A stretch of 32,000 nucleotides of DNA from NCBI GenBank assembly GCA_045660865.1, contig JAZREP010000015.1, positions 28,266 to 60,265 on the forward strand, read 5' to 3'. Below are positions 3,007-19,807 of the stretch, piece by piece (within the stretch, counting starts at the first letter, position 1; every line of letters starts with the position of its first letter). The stretch is from Acutalibacteraceae bacterium. GTDB taxonomy: Bacteria > Bacillota > Clostridia > Oscillospirales > Acutalibacteraceae. The notes below the pieces were generated by a model. The model searched no databases and was not told where the DNA came from. It saw nothing but the letters and a program-made list of their open reading frames with translations. The position numbers and the translations under genes were made by a program.

Positions 3007-4857
<1,851 letters not shown>

Positions 4858-4870
4858 TTATGTTTATTTA

Positions 4871-5368
4871 TTAGTTGGCGACCTGTACCATCGCTGTACG
4901 AATAACGGTGTCACCTAATTTATAACCTTTTTGTAAAACCAGGGCAATTACGTTTTCACCCAAATTTTCATCCTCAATATGCATTACTGCCTCGTGGAAA
5001 TTCGGGTCAAAGGTTTCCCCTACTTCACCGATAGCGGTAATTCCCAATTGATTCCCAAGCTCACAGAACTGCTTAACTATAAGTTCAATGCCTTTATTGT
5101 AATCATTACTGCCCGGCTCACACGCGGCGGCGCGGTCAACATTATCCAAAATCGGAAGCATCGGTTTAATCATTTGCGCTTTTGCATATTCTAAAGCGGC
5201 AATGCGCTCACGCTCGGTGCGTTTTTTATAGTTATCAAACTCTGCCGCTGTGCGAAGCAACATTTCCTTAGCCTCGGCAAGTTCTTTTTGCAGTTGTTCT
5301 AATTGTGTATTATCTTCTTTTTTAGCTTCAGCCTTTTTAGGCTCTTTCTTTGCGGTTTGATTAGCCAA
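4871..5368 (-). CDS. grpE: Nucleotide exchange factor GrpE
   Basis: Position between hrcA and dnaK. It has a coiled-coil N-terminus and the C-terminal GrpE beta domain (FDPNFHEAV...V.V). The TTG start is preceded by GGAGGAA, which lies in the last codons of hrcA. Confidence 0.93.
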   Translation of the reverse strand: MANQTAKKEPKKAEAKKEDNTQLEQLQKELAEAKEMLLRTAAEFDNYKKRTERERIAALEYAKAQMIKPMLPILDNVDRAAACEPGSNDYNKGIELIVKQFCELGNQLGITAIGEVGETFDPNFHEAVMHIEDENLGENVIALVLQKGYKLGDTVIRTAMVQVAN

Positions 5369-12155: not shown

Positions 12156-12200
12156 GTATAAATCCACTGTAAATTTGCAAAATATATATTAGGTGATTTT

Positions 12201-12551
12201 ATGAAAAAGCCATTATTTTATCTTTGCAATCTTGCGGTTGGTGTTGTAAACGGACTCTTCGGTGCAGGCGGCGGTATGCTTGCCGTACCGCTTTTAAAAA
12301 GTACAGACATTTCTCAAAAGCAGGCTCACGCAAATTGCGTTGCTATTATTCTGCCTATGACTGTTTTCAGCGCAATACTATATTTGGCGCAAGGGCGAAT
12401 GGCGGTGTCCGACGCACTGCCGTTTTTTGTGCCGGGTTTGTTAGGAGCTTTAGCGGGTACCATTATTTTATCTAAAATACAAAACAAGTGGCTCAAAAAG
12501 GTTTTTGCCGCCTTTATGATTTGGGCAGGAATTAGTTTGGTGATGAGATGA
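12201..12551 (+). CDS. TSUP (TauE/SafE, DUF81) family membrane protein, half-size unit 1
   Basis: 116 aa, about 4 TM helices. N-terminal GxxGAGGGMLAVPLL motif characteristic of TSUP repeat units. Confidence 0.75.
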   Translation: MKKPLFYLCNLAVGVVNGLFGAGGGMLAVPLLKSTDISQKQAHANCVAIILPMTVFSAILYLAQGRMAVSDALPFFVPGLLGALAGTIILSKIQNKWLKKVFAAFMIWAGISLVMR

Positions 12552-12922
12552 ATTCTATTATAACTTTTTTAGCCGGATTTTTGTCGGGAATGTTTGGCGC
12601 AATGGGTCTTGGAGGCGGCGGTGTGCTGCTTATTTACCTTACTTTATTTGCTGGAATGGAGCAATTGCAAGCCCAGGGTGTAAACCTGCTGTTTTTTATA
12701 CCCATAGGCACAGTTGCCACCATTATTTACGCAATAAGAAAACAAATAAAGTGGAAAACTGTTTTGATTTTTGCTTGTCTTGGTATTGCAGGTTCTGCCG
12801 GCGGTACCTATATTTCAAGTTTGCTTGGCGGAACATTGCTTTCCAAACTGTTTGGAGGCGCTTTAATTTTAACCGGAATTTGGCAACTTTTCAGTAGACA
12901 AAAAGAAAAACCGGTGGTATAA
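12548..12922 (+). CDS. TSUP (TauE/SafE, DUF81) family membrane protein, half-size unit 2
   Basis: 124 aa, about 4 TM helices. It has its own GMFGAMGLGGGGVLLIYL motif. Its ATG overlaps the unit-1 stop (ATGA at 12548-12551). Confidence 0.75.
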   Translation: MNSIITFLAGFLSGMFGAMGLGGGGVLLIYLTLFAGMEQLQAQGVNLLFFIPIGTVATIIYAIRKQIKWKTVLIFACLGIAGSAGGTYISSLLGGTLLSKLFGGALILTGIWQLFSRQKEKPVV

Positions 12923-12955
12923 TTCTATAAACACAATGTAAAGGAATGTTAGTTT

Positions 12956-13837
12956 ATGGATTTCAATGCAACTTTAGTAGTTATGGCAGCAGGTATGGGT
13001 AGCCGTTTCGGCGGACTTAAACAGGTTGAGCCTGTAGGTCCTAACGGTGAAGCCATTTTAGATTTTTCAGTTTATGATGCAAAGCAAGCAGGCTTTAACA
13101 AAGTAGTATTTATTATAAAGAAGCAAATTGAGGAAGAATTTAAGAGTTTAGTCGGCAGCCGCATAGAAAAACAGATTGCGGTTGATTATGTATTCCAAGA
13201 GACTGACAAACTGCCCGAAGGCTTTGTTTGCCCTTCAACACGCACCAAACCCTGGGGCACAGGACACGCAGTGCTCTGTTGTAAAGATGTTGTTAAAGAG
13301 CCTTTTGCAGTTATCAATGCCGACGATTTCTACGGTTCCTCCGGATACAAGAGCATCTATGAGCATTTGAAAAACAACAATAATTACTGTATGGTAGGCT
13401 TCCGTCTTGGCAATACAGTAACCGAAAACGGAACTGTTTCCCGTGGTGTTTGCAACACAGAAAACGGTCTTTTAACCTCTGTTACCGAGCACACAAAAAT
13501 TGACGGCAACTGCGTATCCTTATTTGACAATGAAACTGTACAGCTCACACCCGATACCATTATTTCCATGAACATGTGGGGCTTTACACCCGATATTTTC
13601 AATTACTTAGAGCGTGAATTTAACGGATTTTTAAAAGAAAACATTAACAGCGAAAAGGCTGAGTTTTTCTTGCCCTTTGTTGTAGACGATTTAATTAAAA
13701 ACGGTGAAAAAACCGTAAGCATGCTGACAACTGAGGATAAGTGGTACGGCGTTACATATAAAGAGGACAAGGATGCCGTTGTTTCAGCTGTTTCGGCTTT
13801 AATTAGCGAAGGCCGTTACGATAGTATGAAAGGATAA
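12956..13837 (+). CDS. Sugar-phosphate nucleotidyltransferase family protein
   Basis: N-terminal VVMAAGMGSRFGGLKQ (the GxGxR nucleotide-binding loop of the NTP_transferase fold), PWGTGHAV and INADDFYG. RBS AAAGGAA lies upstream. Confidence 0.8.
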   Translation: MDFNATLVVMAAGMGSRFGGLKQVEPVGPNGEAILDFSVYDAKQAGFNKVVFIIKKQIEEEFKSLVGSRIEKQIAVDYVFQETDKLPEGFVCPSTRTKPWGTGHAVLCCKDVVKEPFAVINADDFYGSSGYKSIYEHLKNNNNYCMVGFRLGNTVTENGTVSRGVCNTENGLLTSVTEHTKIDGNCVSLFDNETVQLTPDTIISMNMWGFTPDIFNYLEREFNGFLKENINSEKAEFFLPFVVDDLIKNGEKTVSMLTTEDKWYGVTYKEDKDAVVSAVSALISEGRYDSMKG

Positions 13838-13845
13838 ACTGATTT

Positions 13846-14388
13846 ATGGAACAAATTAAGGCGCAAGCATCAGCTGCCGTTAAAGAGCTGATTCAAGTTG
13901 CTGGACTTAAAAAAGGTGATATTTTAGTTGTTGGTTGCAGCAGCAGTGAGATAATGGGTTGCGGAATTGGTACAAACTCTGACATTTCGGCTGCCGAGGC
14001 AGTTTTTAACACTATCTATCCCCTGCTTTCAAAAAAAGGCATTTACTTAGCGGCTCAATGCTGTGAGCATTTAAACCGAGCTATTGTTATAGAGAAGGAT
14101 GCTTTACCTTTTGCTGAGCAGGTAAATGTTGTGCCGCAAAAAAAAGCAGGCGGCTCATTTGCAACAACCGCCTACCATTCATTTAAAAATCCAATTGTCG
14201 TTGAGGAAATCAAGGCCGATGCAGGCTTAGATATCGGCAGTACCTTGATTGGTATGCACCTTAAAAAGGTTGCCGTTCCTGTACGCCTTGAAACCAAGCA
14301 AATCGGTGAGGCTTTACTTACCGCCGCCAGAACAAGACCTAAATTTATCGGCGGTGTTAGAGCTATCTACGATAATGATTTAATGTAA
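13846..14388 (+). CDS. UPF0340 / DUF436 (YwlG-like, TIGR01440) family protein
   Basis: 180 aa. GDILVVGCSSSEI, YLAAQCCEHLNRA, GGSFAT and IGMHLK match the conserved blocks of the YwlG family. It starts 8 nt after the upstream gene. Confidence 0.75.
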   Translation: MEQIKAQASAAVKELIQVAGLKKGDILVVGCSSSEIMGCGIGTNSDISAAEAVFNTIYPLLSKKGIYLAAQCCEHLNRAIVIEKDALPFAEQVNVVPQKKAGGSFATTAYHSFKNPIVVEEIKADAGLDIGSTLIGMHLKKVAVPVRLETKQIGEALLTAARTRPKFIGGVRAIYDNDLM

Positions 14389-15236
14389 TTTATAATATCC
14401 GTAACTGCTTCGGCGTTTTGCCGAGGCAGTTTTTTTATTTGGTGATTTATTTTGCTTTCGTATTTTGCCGTGATTTGTCTGGCAATGGCTACGCCGCCGT
14501 CCATATAACGCAAAACCTCATTGCTTTTATCCCCTTTTAGCCAAGGGTAAAGTTCCAGTGTGCAAATGTGGGGCATAGTCATTACGCCGTTTTTAAAATC
14601 GGAATACCTTTTTTCACCCATAACAGTACAATCTTTTATATCATCGTTAAGCTGAAACCACAATCCTATTCTGCGGCAAAGCGTACTAAGGGTTGCAGAA
14701 TCAGTATAATTTTGCAAAGCGGCGGCACCGCACAAGGAAAACAAGGCTGCCGTCTTACCGTTTATTGTGCGGGCGTATTCCGGCACCGAAACTACTTTGT
14801 GCTGATTGTTTATTTCTCGCATTTCACCGCAACACAATTTAGAAAGCGTTTTATAAAAATACTCGGTTAATTCATTTTGGTCCTTAATCAAGGAAAAGCA
14901 TTTAAGGTACAAGAAATCGCCCGTAAGCAGCGCCTTATTTTCACCGAATTTTTGGTGTAATGCTCTTTTGCCACGTCTGGTTTCGCTTTTGTCAATTAAG
15001 TCATCGTGTATCAATGTTGCCAAATGCAAAAGTTCAATTGCCGCCAAGCGGGGAACAATTTCCTTTGGTATTCTCCCCTTTTCATCGGTTGAAAGGGCTA
15101 AACCTAACCGTGCACGAAGCATTTTTCCGTACGGGCGCACAGTGTATTTTAGTGTATCATTAAAAACACCGCCCTGCAGTGTGTCCCTAAGTATAAACTT
15201 AACACCCTGCAAGGCGGTATTTTGACTTTGGTACAT
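14367..15236 (-). CDS. Polyprenyl diphosphate synthase family protein (trans-isoprenyl diphosphate synthase)
   Basis: First Asp-rich motif LIHDDLIDKSETRRG and second motif FQLNDDIKD. Start set at ATG 15236 (MYQSQNT), 11 nt after the upstream stop. The ORF-track extension overlaps the Gx transporter gene. Confidence 0.85.
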   Translation of the reverse strand: MYQSQNTALQGVKFILRDTLQGGVFNDTLKYTVRPYGKMLRARLGLALSTDEKGRIPKEIVPRLAAIELLHLATLIHDDLIDKSETRRGKRALHQKFGENKALLTGDFLYLKCFSLIKDQNELTEYFYKTLSKLCCGEMREINNQHKVVSVPEYARTINGKTAALFSLCGAAALQNYTDSATLSTLCRRIGLWFQLNDDIKDCTVMGEKRYSDFKNGVMTMPHICTLELYPWLKGDKSNEVLRYMDGGVAIARQITAKYESKINHQIKKLPRQNAEAVTDIINYIKSLS

Positions 15237-15247
15237 AACATCATTCC

Positions 15248-15733
15248 TTAAATAATATGTACCCTTGCAAGTAGGAATATACTTACAAGTCCTATAAGGA
15301 ATCCACAAACCACACCGGCAATTAACAAAACCGGAGTATAATAAAAAACTGCGTTTGAGCCAAGTATAATTGACGCAACAAGTAACTGACCTATATTATG
15401 TGCAACACCACCTGCGACACTTACACCCACCGGAGAAAAAATCTTTGTTGCTTTTAGCAAGACCATAACCAATAAACTCAGCAATCCGCCGCAAAGTGAA
15501 TACACAAGTGACATTACATTGCCGAACAGAAGCGCAACCAGTAAAATTCGCAAAAGATTTATAAGGATTGCTGTTTTGAAATCTTTACGGTAAAGCAGAA
15601 AAACCGAGATTAAATTAGCAAGACCTAATTTAACACCGTAGGCAATAAAATCAAGCGGAAGCAATATCTCCACATAGGATAAAATCATACCCAATGCCAA
15701 AAGCAAGCCGTATGTGGCGGTTTTTTTAGCCAT
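15248..15733 (-). CDS. Gx transporter family protein (legacy Pfam name: heptaprenyl diphosphate synthase component I, PF07456)
   Basis: 161 aa polytopic membrane protein with about 5-6 TM helices (LLLALGMILSYVE..., GVSVAGGVAHNIGQL). Start at ATG 15733 after GGAGGTG. It lies next to NusG-II and polyprenyl synthase genes, the usual context of this family. Confidence 0.7.
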   Translation of the reverse strand: MAKKTATYGLLLALGMILSYVEILLPLDFIAYGVKLGLANLISVFLLYRKDFKTAILINLLRILLVALLFGNVMSLVYSLCGGLLSLLVMVLLKATKIFSPVGVSVAGGVAHNIGQLLVASIILGSNAVFYYTPVLLIAGVVCGFLIGLVSIFLLARVHII

Positions 15734-15734
15734 C

Positions 15735-16052
15735 TTACCGCACCTCCACGACAACCGAATTAGGCAGACATACTATGGCTTCGCCTTTATCGTTTATTTT
15801 ACCTTTGTTGACACAAATTTGGTCACGGCAGTCGGCGTGGGAAACAAACACTGCTCCATCTTTTATTTCTACCGTATTGTGCTCTAATTTTATGACCTGA
15901 TTAGTGTCTAAACGGTATTCGCCATAAACCTCATTAGCGGTTGTTACGCGAACTGTACCGCCCTCTTTTTTAAATGCCGCAAATAAAAAAACCGACTCAA
16001 CCGCTATGGCAATAATGCAGGCACTTAAAATATAATCTGCTTTTTTAATCAT
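15735..16052 (-). CDS. NusG domain II-containing protein (DUF1312, PF07009), membrane-anchored
   Basis: 105 aa. N-terminal TM helix, then a beta-rich domain with CRDQICV...GEAIVCLPNSVVVEV, the conserved Cys pattern of the family. Its ATG overlaps the NDH-2 stop by 8 nt (ATGATTAA). Confidence 0.7.
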   Translation of the reverse strand: MIKKADYILSACIIAIAVESVFLFAAFKKEGGTVRVTTANEVYGEYRLDTNQVIKLEHNTVEIKDGAVFVSHADCRDQICVNKGKINDKGEAIVCLPNSVVVEVR

Positions 16053-17934
16053 TATATAAATACCATTTCCTGCTTAATTTTGTATTCTTATATTTTGATT
16101 TTAAAGCAGGCAACAGGTAATAGTCAAGTCCAAATGCCATTCCGCCGCCAAAAAGCAAAGCAATTGAAGCAAAAATCAACCACCAGGTACCCAAATACAG
16201 CCCTGTCGTCATTAAAAACATAAGCTGTAGCAGCAAGGCGTAAGCATTTGCAAAAAAATTGAAACAACCAAGCACTAATAAAGCGCCTATTAAAAGCTCA
16301 CTTATAATTATAATCCATTGGAAAATCAATTGGCTTGTGTTATTGTACAAAACCACTTCATTTATAAAAAATGTTACGGGACTAAATAAAATACGTAAGG
16401 CGTATTCGCCGCCACTTTTTATAAAATGAGGGTTAAAAAACCATAAAAGCCTAAAATTAAAGATTTGCTCACTAACCGCTTCGGTAGTAGCGGTAGCCGA
16501 GGTCATAGCTTCTGAGCCACCTTTGAAAGCAACTGAAAAATAAGCATCTGCACCCGAAAAGAACGATGTTAATTCAGGGGATTTTAACCAGCCGTCGGCT
16601 ATTTTTTCTACTGCCTCTATTATCCAATAGACACCCGTAAAAATCCTGAGCGGCAAAAGCCAAATACCGCTTTTACGGTTTGCAAACAACCCACCGAATA
16701 TGCTTCGCCTATCCCTTCTGGCAAAGAACTCGTGTTTTAGATAATTACGGCATTGCCTATACCCTGCTATTTGCCAAAAATAGACCAGGTTAATAAAATG
16801 CTTTATAAGCATCGAAAAAAACGATGGCAAAATAATTGTTTTACCCAACAAATTCAGTTGCGCTGTAGCGTAGCGGCTTCCAACCGATACCATTATTCCG
16901 TGGAAATTGGGTTTATAAGAAATTTTATAGTTTGTCTCGGTTATATCGCAATAAATGTTGTGGGCTATTGTTTCGGCTGATTGCTCTGCATTTTCTACCA
17001 TTTGCGGAACAGTGGTGTTTGTTTCGTCAATAAAATATAGATTATCACCGCCGATATAGACATTTTCTGCTGCCTGCAAATATTCGTCGGTTTGTATACG
17101 GCCTCTGCCCTTTACGGTAAATGATTTACCGACCTCATCTATTATTGAGGCTACCCTAACACCTGCTGTCCAGACTACTGTTGAAGCCGAAATATGCTTA
17201 TTTGCTATGCTAAGACCTTTTTCGCCTATTTCTTCAACCTTGCTTCCCGTCATAAGCTCTATGCCCTGCTTATAAAGACGCTTTAACACCCTTTTTCGTG
17301 CCTTTTCCTTTAAAATGGGCAGTATTTCTTCCATAACATCTGCACAAATAAGACGGATTTCGTTTCTATCCACACCGTACTCATAACACAGTTGCGGCAA
17401 CCACTCGCTTAATTCGCCGGTCAATTCAACACCGGTAAATCCTGCTCCTACAACCACAAAGGTAAGCAAAGCGGCTCTTTTTTCTTTATCTGGTTCTTTT
17501 GTTGAAAGCAAGATACAATTTTCTATATGACGGCGCAAGGTTACCGCATCATCATATGACCATAAACGAAATGCATTCTCCTTTGCTCCACTTACGCCGA
17601 AAAACTCCGGCTCACTTCCTGCACAAAGCACCAGATAATCATAAGTATAACTGCTTTTTTTACCTGTCACTTTTTTCAAGGTTGTATCTATATGAGTAAT
17701 TGTATCGGTTACACTTTCAACCTTCGTACCGCCAAAAATTGTATCATAGGGTATTCGTATGCTATCAGGCTCGGTTCTTCCGCCTGCTACTTCATGCAGT
17801 TCTGTGAGCATAGTGTGGAAGGGGTTTTTATCTATTAAAGTTATGTCGGCTTTACCTTTAAGCCGCTTATGCAACTTTTTTGCGGCAATTACTCCTGTAT
17901 ATCCACCACCTATTATGACAATACTTTTATTCAA
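16045..17934 (-). CDS. ndh: Type II NADH dehydrogenase (NDH-2) fused to a ~240-aa polytopic C-terminal membrane domain
   Basis: N-terminal IVIIGGGYTGVIAAKKL and second dinucleotide fold FVVVGAGFTGVELTGEL (Pyr_redox_2). Residues from about 400 onward contain about 5-6 hydrophobic helices (IWLLPLRIFTGVYWII, IIIISELLIGALLVLGCF, LLLQLMFLMTTGLYL, WWLIFASIALLFGGGMAF). Start set at TTG 17934, 8 nt after AAAGGGG. The ORF-track GTG at 17976 is an alternative. Confidence 0.85.
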   Translation of the reverse strand: MNKSIVIIGGGYTGVIAAKKLHKRLKGKADITLIDKNPFHTMLTELHEVAGGRTEPDSIRIPYDTIFGGTKVESVTDTITHIDTTLKKVTGKKSSYTYDYLVLCAGSEPEFFGVSGAKENAFRLWSYDDAVTLRRHIENCILLSTKEPDKEKRAALLTFVVVGAGFTGVELTGELSEWLPQLCYEYGVDRNEIRLICADVMEEILPILKEKARKRVLKRLYKQGIELMTGSKVEEIGEKGLSIANKHISASTVVWTAGVRVASIIDEVGKSFTVKGRGRIQTDEYLQAAENVYIGGDNLYFIDETNTTVPQMVENAEQSAETIAHNIYCDITETNYKISYKPNFHGIMVSVGSRYATAQLNLLGKTIILPSFFSMLIKHFINLVYFWQIAGYRQCRNYLKHEFFARRDRRSIFGGLFANRKSGIWLLPLRIFTGVYWIIEAVEKIADGWLKSPELTSFFSGADAYFSVAFKGGSEAMTSATATTEAVSEQIFNFRLLWFFNPHFIKSGGEYALRILFSPVTFFINEVVLYNNTSQLIFQWIIIISELLIGALLVLGCFNFFANAYALLLQLMFLMTTGLYLGTWWLIFASIALLFGGGMAFGLDYYLLPALKSKYKNTKLSRKWYLYND

Positions 17935-17987
17935 AAAAACTTCCCCTTTTTGCCAATTATGTAGTATACTATACACGAGGTGAAATA

Positions 17988-18977
17988 ATGAAAAGAATAG
18001 TTGCCTTTTTATTAGTTTTTTTGTTGCTGCCGATTTACGGTTGTAAGAGCACCGAAAAAGAATTTAGCGCCACAAGAATTCTACTTGATACTGCTGTGCA
18101 AATCACCATTTATTCGGGCGGAAGCAACGACATTTTAGAAGAGTGCTTTAACCTTTGCCAAGAGTACGAGCAGCTGTTCAGCACCACAATTTTAGACAGT
18201 GATATTTCCCGTATCAATTCGTCTGACGGCAAGCCGCTAGAGGTTAATCCTCAAACGGCGGAGTTGTTGCGCCTTTCTTATGATTACAGTAAATTAAGCG
18301 ACGGAGTCTTTGATATTACTGTTTTACCCTTAAAAGAGCTTTGGGATTTCAAAGCGCAAGACCCTAAATTACCCGACAACAAACAAATTAGCAATGCTTT
18401 AGCATCAATAGGTTATAACAATGTTTCTGTTACAGAAAACACCGTTACATTAAAAAATAATGCAAAGGTTGATTTGGGCGGTATTGCAAAGGGCTATATT
18501 GCCGACCGTTTGTGTGAATACTTAAAATCACAAAATGTTACTTGTGCTCTTGTTAATTTGGGAGGCAATGTAGCTTGTGTGGGTGAAAAAAGCGGTGGCT
18601 TTAAAATTGGTGTGAAAAAACCTTATTCTTTAAATGAGGTACTAAAAACCATTCAAATAGATAACGGCTCTGTTGTGACCTCGGGTTGTTATGAACGCTA
18701 TTTTACCTTAGATGACAAGCAGTATCACCACATTTTAGACACTAAAACCGGTTATCCTGTAGATAACGATTTAGCCGGCGTTACCGTTATTAGTGAAAAT
18801 TCCGCTTTGGCTGATTTTCTTTCTACCACACTTTATGCTTTAGGTTATGAAAAGGCTTTGCAATTCCTTCAAGACCAGCCCGCCGAGGCAGTTTTTGTTT
18901 TCAAGGATAATTCAGTACGCCTATCTGACGGGCTTGAATACGAAGATAAGGACACTATAATTTTATCAAACGATTAA
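17988..18977 (+). CDS. apbE: FAD:protein FMN transferase (ApbE family) lipoprotein
   Basis: Signal peptide plus lipobox-like LLPIYGC (Cys19). ApbE blocks: FDITV.PL..LW, VDLGGIAKGY, LVNLGGN and HHILDTKTGYP. RBS GAGGTGA lies upstream. Confidence 0.9.
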   Translation: MKRIVAFLLVFLLLPIYGCKSTEKEFSATRILLDTAVQITIYSGGSNDILEECFNLCQEYEQLFSTTILDSDISRINSSDGKPLEVNPQTAELLRLSYDYSKLSDGVFDITVLPLKELWDFKAQDPKLPDNKQISNALASIGYNNVSVTENTVTLKNNAKVDLGGIAKGYIADRLCEYLKSQNVTCALVNLGGNVACVGEKSGGFKIGVKKPYSLNEVLKTIQIDNGSVVTSGCYERYFTLDDKQYHHILDTKTGYPVDNDLAGVTVISENSALADFLSTTLYALGYEKALQFLQDQPAEAVFVFKDNSVRLSDGLEYEDKDTIILSND

Positions 18978-19501
18978 GCTTTTGCTTTTTCAATTGCCTT
19001 GTTATATAAATTGAGATATTGGCTAATAGAAATAGTGCAACCTGATATTGCATCAGTTTTACCCTCAGAGTCAACTGTTATACCCTTAACACCCTTTTCG
19101 GTAAGATGCTTTTCCAACACAGCTATTTCCTCATGCCATTCGGCCTTGGCGTTACCTTTTTCCTTCATACCGTAATTGCCGCTTTCGGACAAGGCTTTCT
19201 TTGACTTTTTATCCTTATCAATATCGTCAATGTTTACCGAAACAACTTTACCGTCACTTACAGTGACGGTAACTGTTGCTAAATATCCGCTTTCGTCATA
19301 CTCATTTGCATCAACGGTATATTTGCCGTCACTCATTGAGCTGACATTTTCGGACCCGGTGCCATCTCCGCTTAAAACCGATTCTACATCGGACTTAACA
19401 TCGGATACGGCTGAATTCAAATCGTCTGTTGCCTTTCTGGAGCAACCGGCAAAAGCCATTAACACCAAAAGTGCACAAACTACTGCTAAAATTCGTTTCA
19501 T
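18974..19501 (-). CDS. FMN-binding domain lipoprotein (predicted ApbE substrate, PplA-like)
   Basis: Lipoprotein signal MAFAGC (Cys20), an acidic/Ser-rich linker, and an FMN_bind-type domain ending with DAISGCTIS (nt 19028-19054, verified). This corresponds to the D-x-x-S-G-A-T flavinylation motif. RBS GGAGGG lies upstream. Confidence 0.8.
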   Translation of the reverse strand: MKRILAVVCALLVLMAFAGCSRKATDDLNSAVSDVKSDVESVLSGDGTGSENVSSMSDGKYTVDANEYDESGYLATVTVTVSDGKVVSVNIDDIDKDKKSKKALSESGNYGMKEKGNAKAEWHEEIAVLEKHLTEKGVKGITVDSEGKTDAISGCTISISQYLNLYNKAIEKAKA

Positions 19502-19576: not shown

Positions 19577-19606
19577 TTGACAACACGGGTCGTTTTGCGG
19601 TATAAT
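19577..19606 (+). promoter_or_regulatory. Near-consensus sigma-A promoter of rpmH-rnpA-yidD-yidC-jag
   Basis: TTGACA (19577-19582), 18 nt, TATAAT (19601-19606), 66 nt upstream of rpmH. Confidence 0.7.
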
Positions 19607-19672: not shown

Positions 19673-19807
19673 ATGAAAAGAACTTACCAACCGAAAAAAT
19701 TGCATCGTAAAAAGGAACATGGTTTTCTTAAGAGAATGGCTACCGGTAATGGTCGTAACGTACTTGCCCGTCGCCGTGCTAAGGGTAGAAAGAGGCTTAC
19801 TCACTAA
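19673..19807 (+). CDS. rpmH: 50S ribosomal protein L34
   Basis: My own translation gives [44 protein letters not shown] (44 aa), canonical L34. RBS GAAGGAGG lies upstream. It is too short to appear in the ORF track. Confidence 0.97.

Follow-up and report, generated by a model that had tools for sequence, protein, structure and literature searches.

A clostridial six-gene locus is probably a version of the Listeria-type flavin-based electron-transfer system

Six contiguous genes at positions 14367-19501 of a 32,000-nucleotide stretch of DNA from an Acutalibacteraceae bacterium (contig JAZREP010000015.1; the whole stretch is referred to here as the window) raise the question of whether they form a new kind of electron-export module or a known one whose parts go by other names. 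A first-pass annotation had described them as an extracytosolic electron transfer (EET)-like locus with a non-canonical part list, in which a pair of genes for a NusG-domain-II protein and a 'Gx transporter' sits in the place of eetA and eetB. The EET-like character is supported by domain content, by direct homology to Listeria proteins and by gene order. What does not hold up is the idea of an uncharacterised variant module, as the gene order of the operon is that of Listeria and its parts have already been published. Judging from the sequence, we consider it likely that these six genes are a clostridial form of the flavin-based extracellular (extracytosolic) electron-transfer system known from Listeria.

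All six open reading frames (ORFs) lie at the coordinates given in the first-pass annotation, and a Pfam check matched each of the six families it had named. The features, in operon order and then across the divergent region, are these:

16045-17934, minus strand: ndh2-like gene; NDH-2 (residues ~1-395) fused at its C-terminal end to a DoxD/DoxX-like membrane domain of ~235 aa (about 16045-16749)
15735-16052, minus strand: eetA-like gene; one N-terminal membrane helix plus NusG domain II
15248-15733, minus strand: eetB-like gene; 'Gx transporter' (PF07456) resembling the S-component of energy-coupling factor (ECF) transporters, the predicted substrate subunit for export of flavin adenine dinucleotide (FAD)
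14367-15236, minus strand: dmkB-like gene; trans-polyprenyl diphosphate synthase
17988-18977, plus strand: apbE/fmnB-like gene; lipoprotein that is an FAD:protein transferase of flavin mononucleotide (FMN)
18974-19501, minus strand: pplA-like gene; lipoprotein with a single FMN-binding domain, predicted to be flavinylated and to carry electrons at the surface
19034-19054, minus strand: flavinylation motif D150-A-I-S-G-C-T156 of the pplA-like gene, with Thr156 the predicted FMN acceptor

The minus-strand operon thus reads ndh2-eetA-eetB-dmkB, with apbE diverging from it on the plus strand across an intergenic region of 53 bp and the pplA-like gene converging on apbE. The junctions within the operon, read directly from the sequence, are those reported previously: the ndh2 and eetA reading frames share 8 nt (ATGATTAA), a single nucleotide separates eetA from the eetB-like gene (TAA-G-ATG), and 11 nt lie between the eetB-like gene and the dmkB-like ATG at 15236.

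Our reference for comparison was a locus of Listeria cossartiae (L003) whose FmnB is 98% identical to 7ESA, the L. monocytogenes FmnB structure (PMC8906456); the 7ESA sequence was rebuilt from an alignment and then used as the query to retrieve Listeria loci. The EET locus of L. monocytogenes (Light et al. 2018, as outlined in PMC8238504 and PMC9973259) has dmkB-eetB-eetA-ndh2 on one strand, and pplA-fmnB-dmkA-fmnA runs along the opposite one. L003 has the same order, and by Pfam its DmkA and FmnA are UbiA and CbiQ proteins, respectively.

The identity of the two genes between ndh2 and the polyprenyl synthase gene decides whether the part list is unusual. The eetA-like protein has one N-terminal hydrophobic helix (residues 8-26) and matches NusG_II (PF07009) at 1.2e-26 (93 bits), a family to which Listeria EetA itself belongs (1.8e-30); by BLASTP the two proteins are 43% identical over the conserved C-terminal 47 aa (5e-11). 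Its neighbor is a polytopic protein that matches PF07456 (Hpre_diP_synt_I, the 'Gx transporter' family) at 1.8e-37 (129 bits), as does Listeria EetB (1.4e-50), with 40% identity between them (3e-26). An AlphaFold model of the eetB-like protein (pLDDT 88.9) gave as its best PDB matches the riboflavin S-components RibU 5kc0 and 5kbw (TM 0.72-0.74, probability 1.00), followed by other ECF S-components; Listeria EetB has likewise been compared with RibU (PMC9973259). There is published precedent for these assignments. Rivera-Lugo et al. 2023 (PMC9973259) used PF07456 to define eetB homologues, NusG_II (PF07009) proteins are named EetA and PF07456 proteins EetB in their Data Set S1, and eetB adjoins eetA in 3,328 of their 4,214 genomes. 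No NCBIfam model matches either the eetA-like or the eetB-like protein, and the names used here were for that reason taken from the literature, from Pfam and from the comparison with Listeria. Because Pfam, BLASTP and gene order all agree with Listeria, the minus-strand operon corresponds gene for gene to the canonical ndh2-eetA-eetB-dmkB, and the NusG-II and PF07456 proteins of the window are, by homology, EetA and EetB.

It follows that the pair does not stand in place of eetA and eetB; the Listeria proteins of these names fall into the same two Pfam families, are homologous by BLASTP and occupy the same positions. A variant module in which EetA/EetB have given way to this pair, with flavin supplied or the electron conduit completed in a new way, has in its favor that the two genes do lie between ndh2 and the polyprenyl synthase gene and that NCBIfam has no model to name them, but the agreement with Listeria and the published adjacency of the two families make it scarcely credible. 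The related suggestion that the Gx protein supplies flavin was right in spirit, though not as a new idea, since Listeria EetB acts together with the ECF-T-like FmnA to export FAD for FmnB-dependent flavinylation (Rivera-Lugo et al. 2023, PMC9973259). PF07456 genes recurrently adjoin polyprenyl synthase genes, and this has likely given the family its misleading name, 'heptaprenyl diphosphate synthase component I', and likely also given EetB the KEGG K00805 label that it carries in the published data set.

The remaining operon genes point the same way. Ndh2, a protein of 629-643 aa depending on the start chosen, matches Pyr_redox_2 (3.4e-36, Pfam) and, over residues 17-406, the PDB NDH-2 structure 4nwz (1e-63). 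The NDH-2 fold covers this range and leaves about 235 additional C-terminal residues, and several hydrophobic helices (~540-603) lie within them, confirming the earlier description of an NDH-2 with a polytopic C-terminal domain. Full-length identity to Listeria Ndh2 is 36% over 648 columns (4e-124, BLASTP), and the C-terminal 234 aa alone retain 28% identity (4e-21). In an alignment of 35 sequences that included Listeria, Enterococcus, Granulicatella and Aerococcus, invariant columns run throughout the C-terminal domain. DoxD was matched by 16 of 35 Ndh2 homologues and DoxX by nine of the 35, while the window's own Ndh2 fell below threshold; on these matches the domain belongs to the DoxD/DoxX membrane families.

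The dmkB-like protein occupies the same position as Listeria DmkB, after eetB, and is 34% identical to it (9e-34, BLASTP), with a Pfam match to polyprenyl_synt at 1.1e-43. Small residues ahead of the first DDxxD motif of a polyprenyl synthase are a sign of a long-chain product. Here both DDxxD motifs are intact and the residues at -5/-4 before the first are A and T, which points to a long-chain product, as predicted from the motif.

Of the two genes outside the operon, apbE is the more straightforward. Its product carries a lipobox (IYGC), matches Pfam ApbE at 8.9e-86 and has as its best solved structure L. monocytogenes FmnB 7ESA (5.5e-55, other ApbEs scoring 1e-42 or weaker); it is 33% identical to Listeria FmnB (2e-57, BLASTP). 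The pplA-like protein also has a lipobox (FAGC) and passes the FMN_bind cut-off of 22 bits with 24.2 (5.2e-05, Pfam). It matches PDB 2kzx at 4e-23, is 32% identical to Listeria PplA (4e-8, BLASTP) and can be aligned to both domains of the latter; aligned with its DAISGCT motif is SGAT in both Listeria PplA and 2kzx. The lipoboxes, Pfam matches and motif uphold the earlier description of an ApbE lipoprotein and an FMN-binding lipoprotein with a flavinylation motif, and we predict that the latter is the FMN acceptor through Thr156.

We looked for the same arrangement in other clostridial genomes, examining ~10 kb around each locus. Homologues are labelled, for example, as Clostridiales, Firmicutes and Oscillospiraceae metagenome-assembled genomes. 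The six-gene module recurs with the same order and orientation in five further genomes (L083, L084, L089, L090 and L091), whose Ndh2 proteins are 48-73% identical to that of the window; this is the neighborhood comparison across Clostridia proposed in the first-pass annotation, and it did reveal co-conservation. The flanking genes are rpmH and DUF436 in L083, as in the window, a rhamnosidase gene and rimP-nusA in L084, gpsA and rpoB in L089 and L091, and a GH43 gene in L090, so that at least four flanking contexts are represented when the window's own is counted. Since the six genes stay together in five other genomes and at least four contexts, they constitute a conserved unit, and the module appears to relocate as one block.

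This conservation bears on another scenario, in which Ndh2 and the polyprenyl synthase form a respiratory NADH:menaquinone module while ApbE, the FMN_bind protein, EetA and EetB work for some unrelated complex, Rnf for example, and are neighbors by chance. There is precedent for both halves of it: in 572 Clostridia genomes Rnf is co-localised with eetB and apbE (PMC9973259), and several Clostridia have ndh2-polyprenyl_synt-UbiA with no ApbE gene nearby. However, the ndh2 operon itself includes eetA and eetB, joined by the 8-nt overlap and 1-nt gap, the six genes travel together through the different flanking contexts, and the window contains no rnf genes. We regard this scenario as very improbable.

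Several observations count against the view that this is a clostridial Listeria-type system. First, the locus is incomplete as seen. Listeria DmkA (UbiA) gave no tblastn match in the 32-kb window and Listeria FmnA (CbiQ/ECF-T) only a chance-level one (E 0.022 over 34 aa), so that, with neither gene in 32 kb, both the quinone branch and the transporter lack a part. The first-pass annotation, which had reported no eetA, eetB, fmnA or dmkA, was therefore correct with respect to fmnA and dmkA and mistaken with respect to the other two. Second, the pplA-like protein diverges from its namesake; it has a single FMN-binding domain in 175 aa where PplA has two, each bearing a flavinylation motif, and the NCBIfam PplA model NF041941 scores it at 52 bits (4e-14) against a cut-off of 325. 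Third, the residue that precedes the acceptor Thr in its motif is Cys instead of the Ala of the consensus. Fourth, EetA is dispensable in Listeria (PMC9973259). Finally, no reductase or terminal acceptor is encoded near the locus, and the genes alone would not separate 'extracellular' delivery of electrons from delivery that is merely 'extracytosolic'.

The Cys was considered as a unique oddity, and this was rejected. The flavinylation consensus is D-x-x-[S/T]-G-A-[S/T] (PMC12052999), and across the PplA subfamily the position is occupied by Cys in all clostridial one-domain relatives seen, by Val in two-domain Paenibacillus proteins and by Ala in 2kzx. An A-to-V change in another ApbE substrate left ~50% of flavinylation (PMC12052999). 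The [S/T]GCT motif is kept across the clostridial six-gene clade.

The missing genes and the conserved Cys could be taken together to mean that the module is a self-sufficient variant that manages without DmkA and FmnA, using exogenous DHNA (1,4-dihydroxy-2-naphthoic acid) or quinones as soluble shuttles along with a housekeeping ECF module, the Cys marking a distinct carrier. Consistent with this idea, UbiA and CbiQ are absent from the neighborhoods of all five sister modules as well as that of the window (none of six loci), and sister clostridial loci keep ndh2-polyprenyl_synt-UbiA together. In addition, exogenous DHNA is used directly as a shuttle by Lactiplantibacillus plantarum (PMC9888254). 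On the other hand, absence within a ~10-kb neighborhood says nothing about the rest of the genome, the retained polyprenyl synthase argues for a prenylated quinone still being made, and the presence of Val or Ala in relatives suggests a tolerant position rather than a new function. On balance we find this variant improbable. The stronger proposition, that the six genes constitute a distinct, self-contained EET sub-type which has lost its dedicated prenyltransferase and ECF-T and runs on exogenous quinone or another lipid-linked carrier, with the Cys beside the flavinylated Thr conferring altered redox or thiol-linked behavior, strikes us as decidedly doubtful.

For the Listeria-type system that we favor, a working model can be put together, all of its steps extrapolated from the homologous systems of Listeria and Lactiplantibacillus. 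The FAD domain of Ndh2 would oxidise cytosolic NADH and reduce a membrane naphthoquinone, while the DoxD/DoxX-like C-terminal domain would anchor the enzyme and probably handle the quinone. The long polyprenyl tail of the quinone would be supplied by the DmkB-like synthase; the DmkA/UbiA enzyme that attaches it would have to be encoded outside the window, unless the cell uses exogenous quinone. EetB, with its RibU-like fold and with EetA as its partner, would export FAD by way of an ECF T/A module encoded elsewhere, and it is known that ECF T and ATPase subunits are partly interchangeable with housekeeping ones in Listeria (PMC9973259). The ApbE/FmnB lipoprotein would then use the exported FAD to place FMN covalently on Thr156 of the one-domain PplA-like lipoprotein, which in turn would take electrons from the quinol to acceptors outside the membrane, be they free flavins, ferric iron or flavinylated reductases.

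The last of these acceptors defines a further alternative, namely that the module serves not extracellular minerals or shuttles but flavinylated extracytosolic reductases encoded elsewhere (fumarate- or urocanate-reductase-like), to which it would provide electrons and flavin, and so supports membrane-proximal anaerobic respiration rather than true EET. The eLife survey provides some precedent, in that the Listeria fumarate reductase is flavinylated and transport-chain components whose genes lie elsewhere pass electrons to flavinylation motifs; the window module also has no terminal acceptor of its own. Nevertheless, no such reductase is present in the window or beside the five related modules. 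We view this alternative as possible, if on the unlikely side. It would refine rather than contradict the reading of the locus as a Listeria-type system, and sequence would not tell the two apart.

If the Listeria-type reading is correct, the locus places a further uncultured clostridial lineage among the bacteria for which electron export via covalently flavinylated lipoproteins is predicted, with an EET module that travels as a compact six-gene unit without prenyltransferase and ECF-T genes. Publications already cover the parts, the gene order and flavin export by the PF07456 protein, and in this respect the locus holds little out of the ordinary; what novelty is left lies in the compact six-gene sub-type together with its [S/T]GCT motif. 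There is also a caution for annotation: proteins listed under PF07456 as 'heptaprenyl diphosphate synthase component I' or 'Gx transporter' are EetB, and those listed under PF07009 as 'NusG domain II' are EetA.

With regard to the finer structure of the locus, the likely start of ndh2 is the TTG at 17934 (629 aa), based on a database twin (P0001) and a GGGGA ribosome-binding site. The eetB-like gene likely starts at the ATG at 15733 (161 aa), based on its twin P0165, and the dmkB-like gene at the ATG at 15236 (289 aa), based on the same call in L083. An Rfam scan of the whole window for riboswitches (e.g. FMN) gave no match at the gathering score, and a promoter and terminator scan of 14-20 kb returned counts near shuffled expectation, with no informative site within the locus. 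No terminator separates the convergent apbE and FMN_bind genes, whose 3' ends share 4 nt (18974-18977). Housekeeping genes make up the rest of the window: mnmE, dnaJ, dnaK, grpE and hrcA to one side of the locus and, to the opposite side, rpmH, rnpA, yidD, yidC, jag, recD2 and others. A perfect TTGACA-18-TATAAT promoter consensus (19577-19606) lies upstream of rpmH (44 aa; 19673-19807, plus strand), which is followed by rnpA-yidD-yidC-jag; there is no adjoining dnaA, and the cumulative GC skew shows no turn at rpmH. At 12201-12922, two adjacent short ORFs (116 and 124 aa, overlapping by 4 nt) match two TauE-family genes in the syntenic L083 and look like a split or two-piece TauE/SafE exporter.

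Clostridia also have a second common arrangement, ndh2-polyprenyl_synt-UbiA, which we found at five loci, including one in Acetobacterium bakii. Like the window, these triads have a long Ndh2 (45-48% identity) with a polyprenyl synthase gene directly after it; unlike the window, they carry UbiA. Genes for ApbE, EetA and EetB do not lie alongside in four of the five. The exception, L088, from a 2.6-Mb clostridial genome, has two ApbE genes and a PF07456 gene flanking the triad (3521-5025, 12200-13240) and no NusG_II gene, which makes it yet another way of combining these genes. Directly upstream of ndh2 in L001 (9344-9880), L085 (7337-7873) and L086 (6369-6917) there is a conserved gene for a ~180-aa lipoprotein with a lipobox; these three lipoproteins gave no FMN_bind match and have no flavinylation motif.

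How close, then, is the window to characterised EET systems? Of eight sequence features of the Listeria locus, five are found outright: (i) an Ndh2 whose C-terminal membrane domain is a homologue of the Listeria one; (ii) EetB, an ECF-S-like PF07456 protein; (iii) EetA, a membrane-anchored PF07009 protein whose gene adjoins eetB; (iv) DmkB, a dedicated polyprenyl diphosphate synthase within the operon; and (v) FmnB, an extracytosolic ApbE-family FMN transferase lipoprotein, recognised by its match to the FmnB structure and its lipobox. PplA is present at the domain level only, and dmkA and fmnA are not in the locus. The ndh2-eetA-eetB-dmkB order with divergent flavinylation genes is identical in 14 Listeria loci and several Enterococcus loci, and operon order, strand logic, the Ndh2 C-terminal domain and the two kinds of lipoprotein are all shared with Listeria, each of the six protein pairs being significant by BLASTP. 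Where the two differ, Listeria has dmkA and fmnA and the window neighborhood has neither; Listeria PplA is a 299-aa protein encoded upstream of and co-directionally with fmnB, whereas the shorter pplA-like gene lies downstream of apbE and converges on it; the motif is SGAT in Listeria and SGCT here; and EetA is 105 aa in the window as opposed to 150 aa. The absence of dmkA and fmnA from 32 kb, the one-domain PplA-like protein and the SGCT motif remain as real differences.

Two of these differences have precedents. Enterococcus loci (dmkB-eetB-eetA-ndh2 and pplA-apbE-dmkA) lack fmnA in the locus, as does the window, and Granulicatella, Streptococcus and Aerococcus loci encode a one-domain PplA of ~165-187 aa. 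The loci of all four genera keep dmkA adjoining apbE, unlike the window, and have SGAT or SGAS motifs rather than SGCT; in streptococcal-type loci the gene order also differs from that of the window and eetA is sometimes not adjacent. Within the ~10 kb inspected around each, every locus with EetA and EetB that we saw outside the six-gene clade has dmkA. As for the EetB/FmnA FAD exporter (PMC9973259), the window has a PF07456 protein with a RibU-like predicted fold whose gene adjoins eetA and lies near apbE. It differs in having no dedicated ECF-T gene near eetB, and eetB adjoins an ECF-T gene in only 291 of the 4,214 genomes of that study. A literature search gave no paper on the exact clostridial arrangement; similar clusters are catalogued in survey data sets. 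Meheust et al. 2021 (PMC8238504) defined EET operationally by a K03885-type NADH dehydrogenase with a transmembrane helix inside a flavinylation-associated cluster, that is, with an ApbE or FMN-binding-domain gene bearing a signal peptide or lipobox within five genes. With its NDH-2 fold, C-terminal hydrophobic helices and adjoining ApbE and FMN_bind lipoproteins, the window locus falls within this definition.

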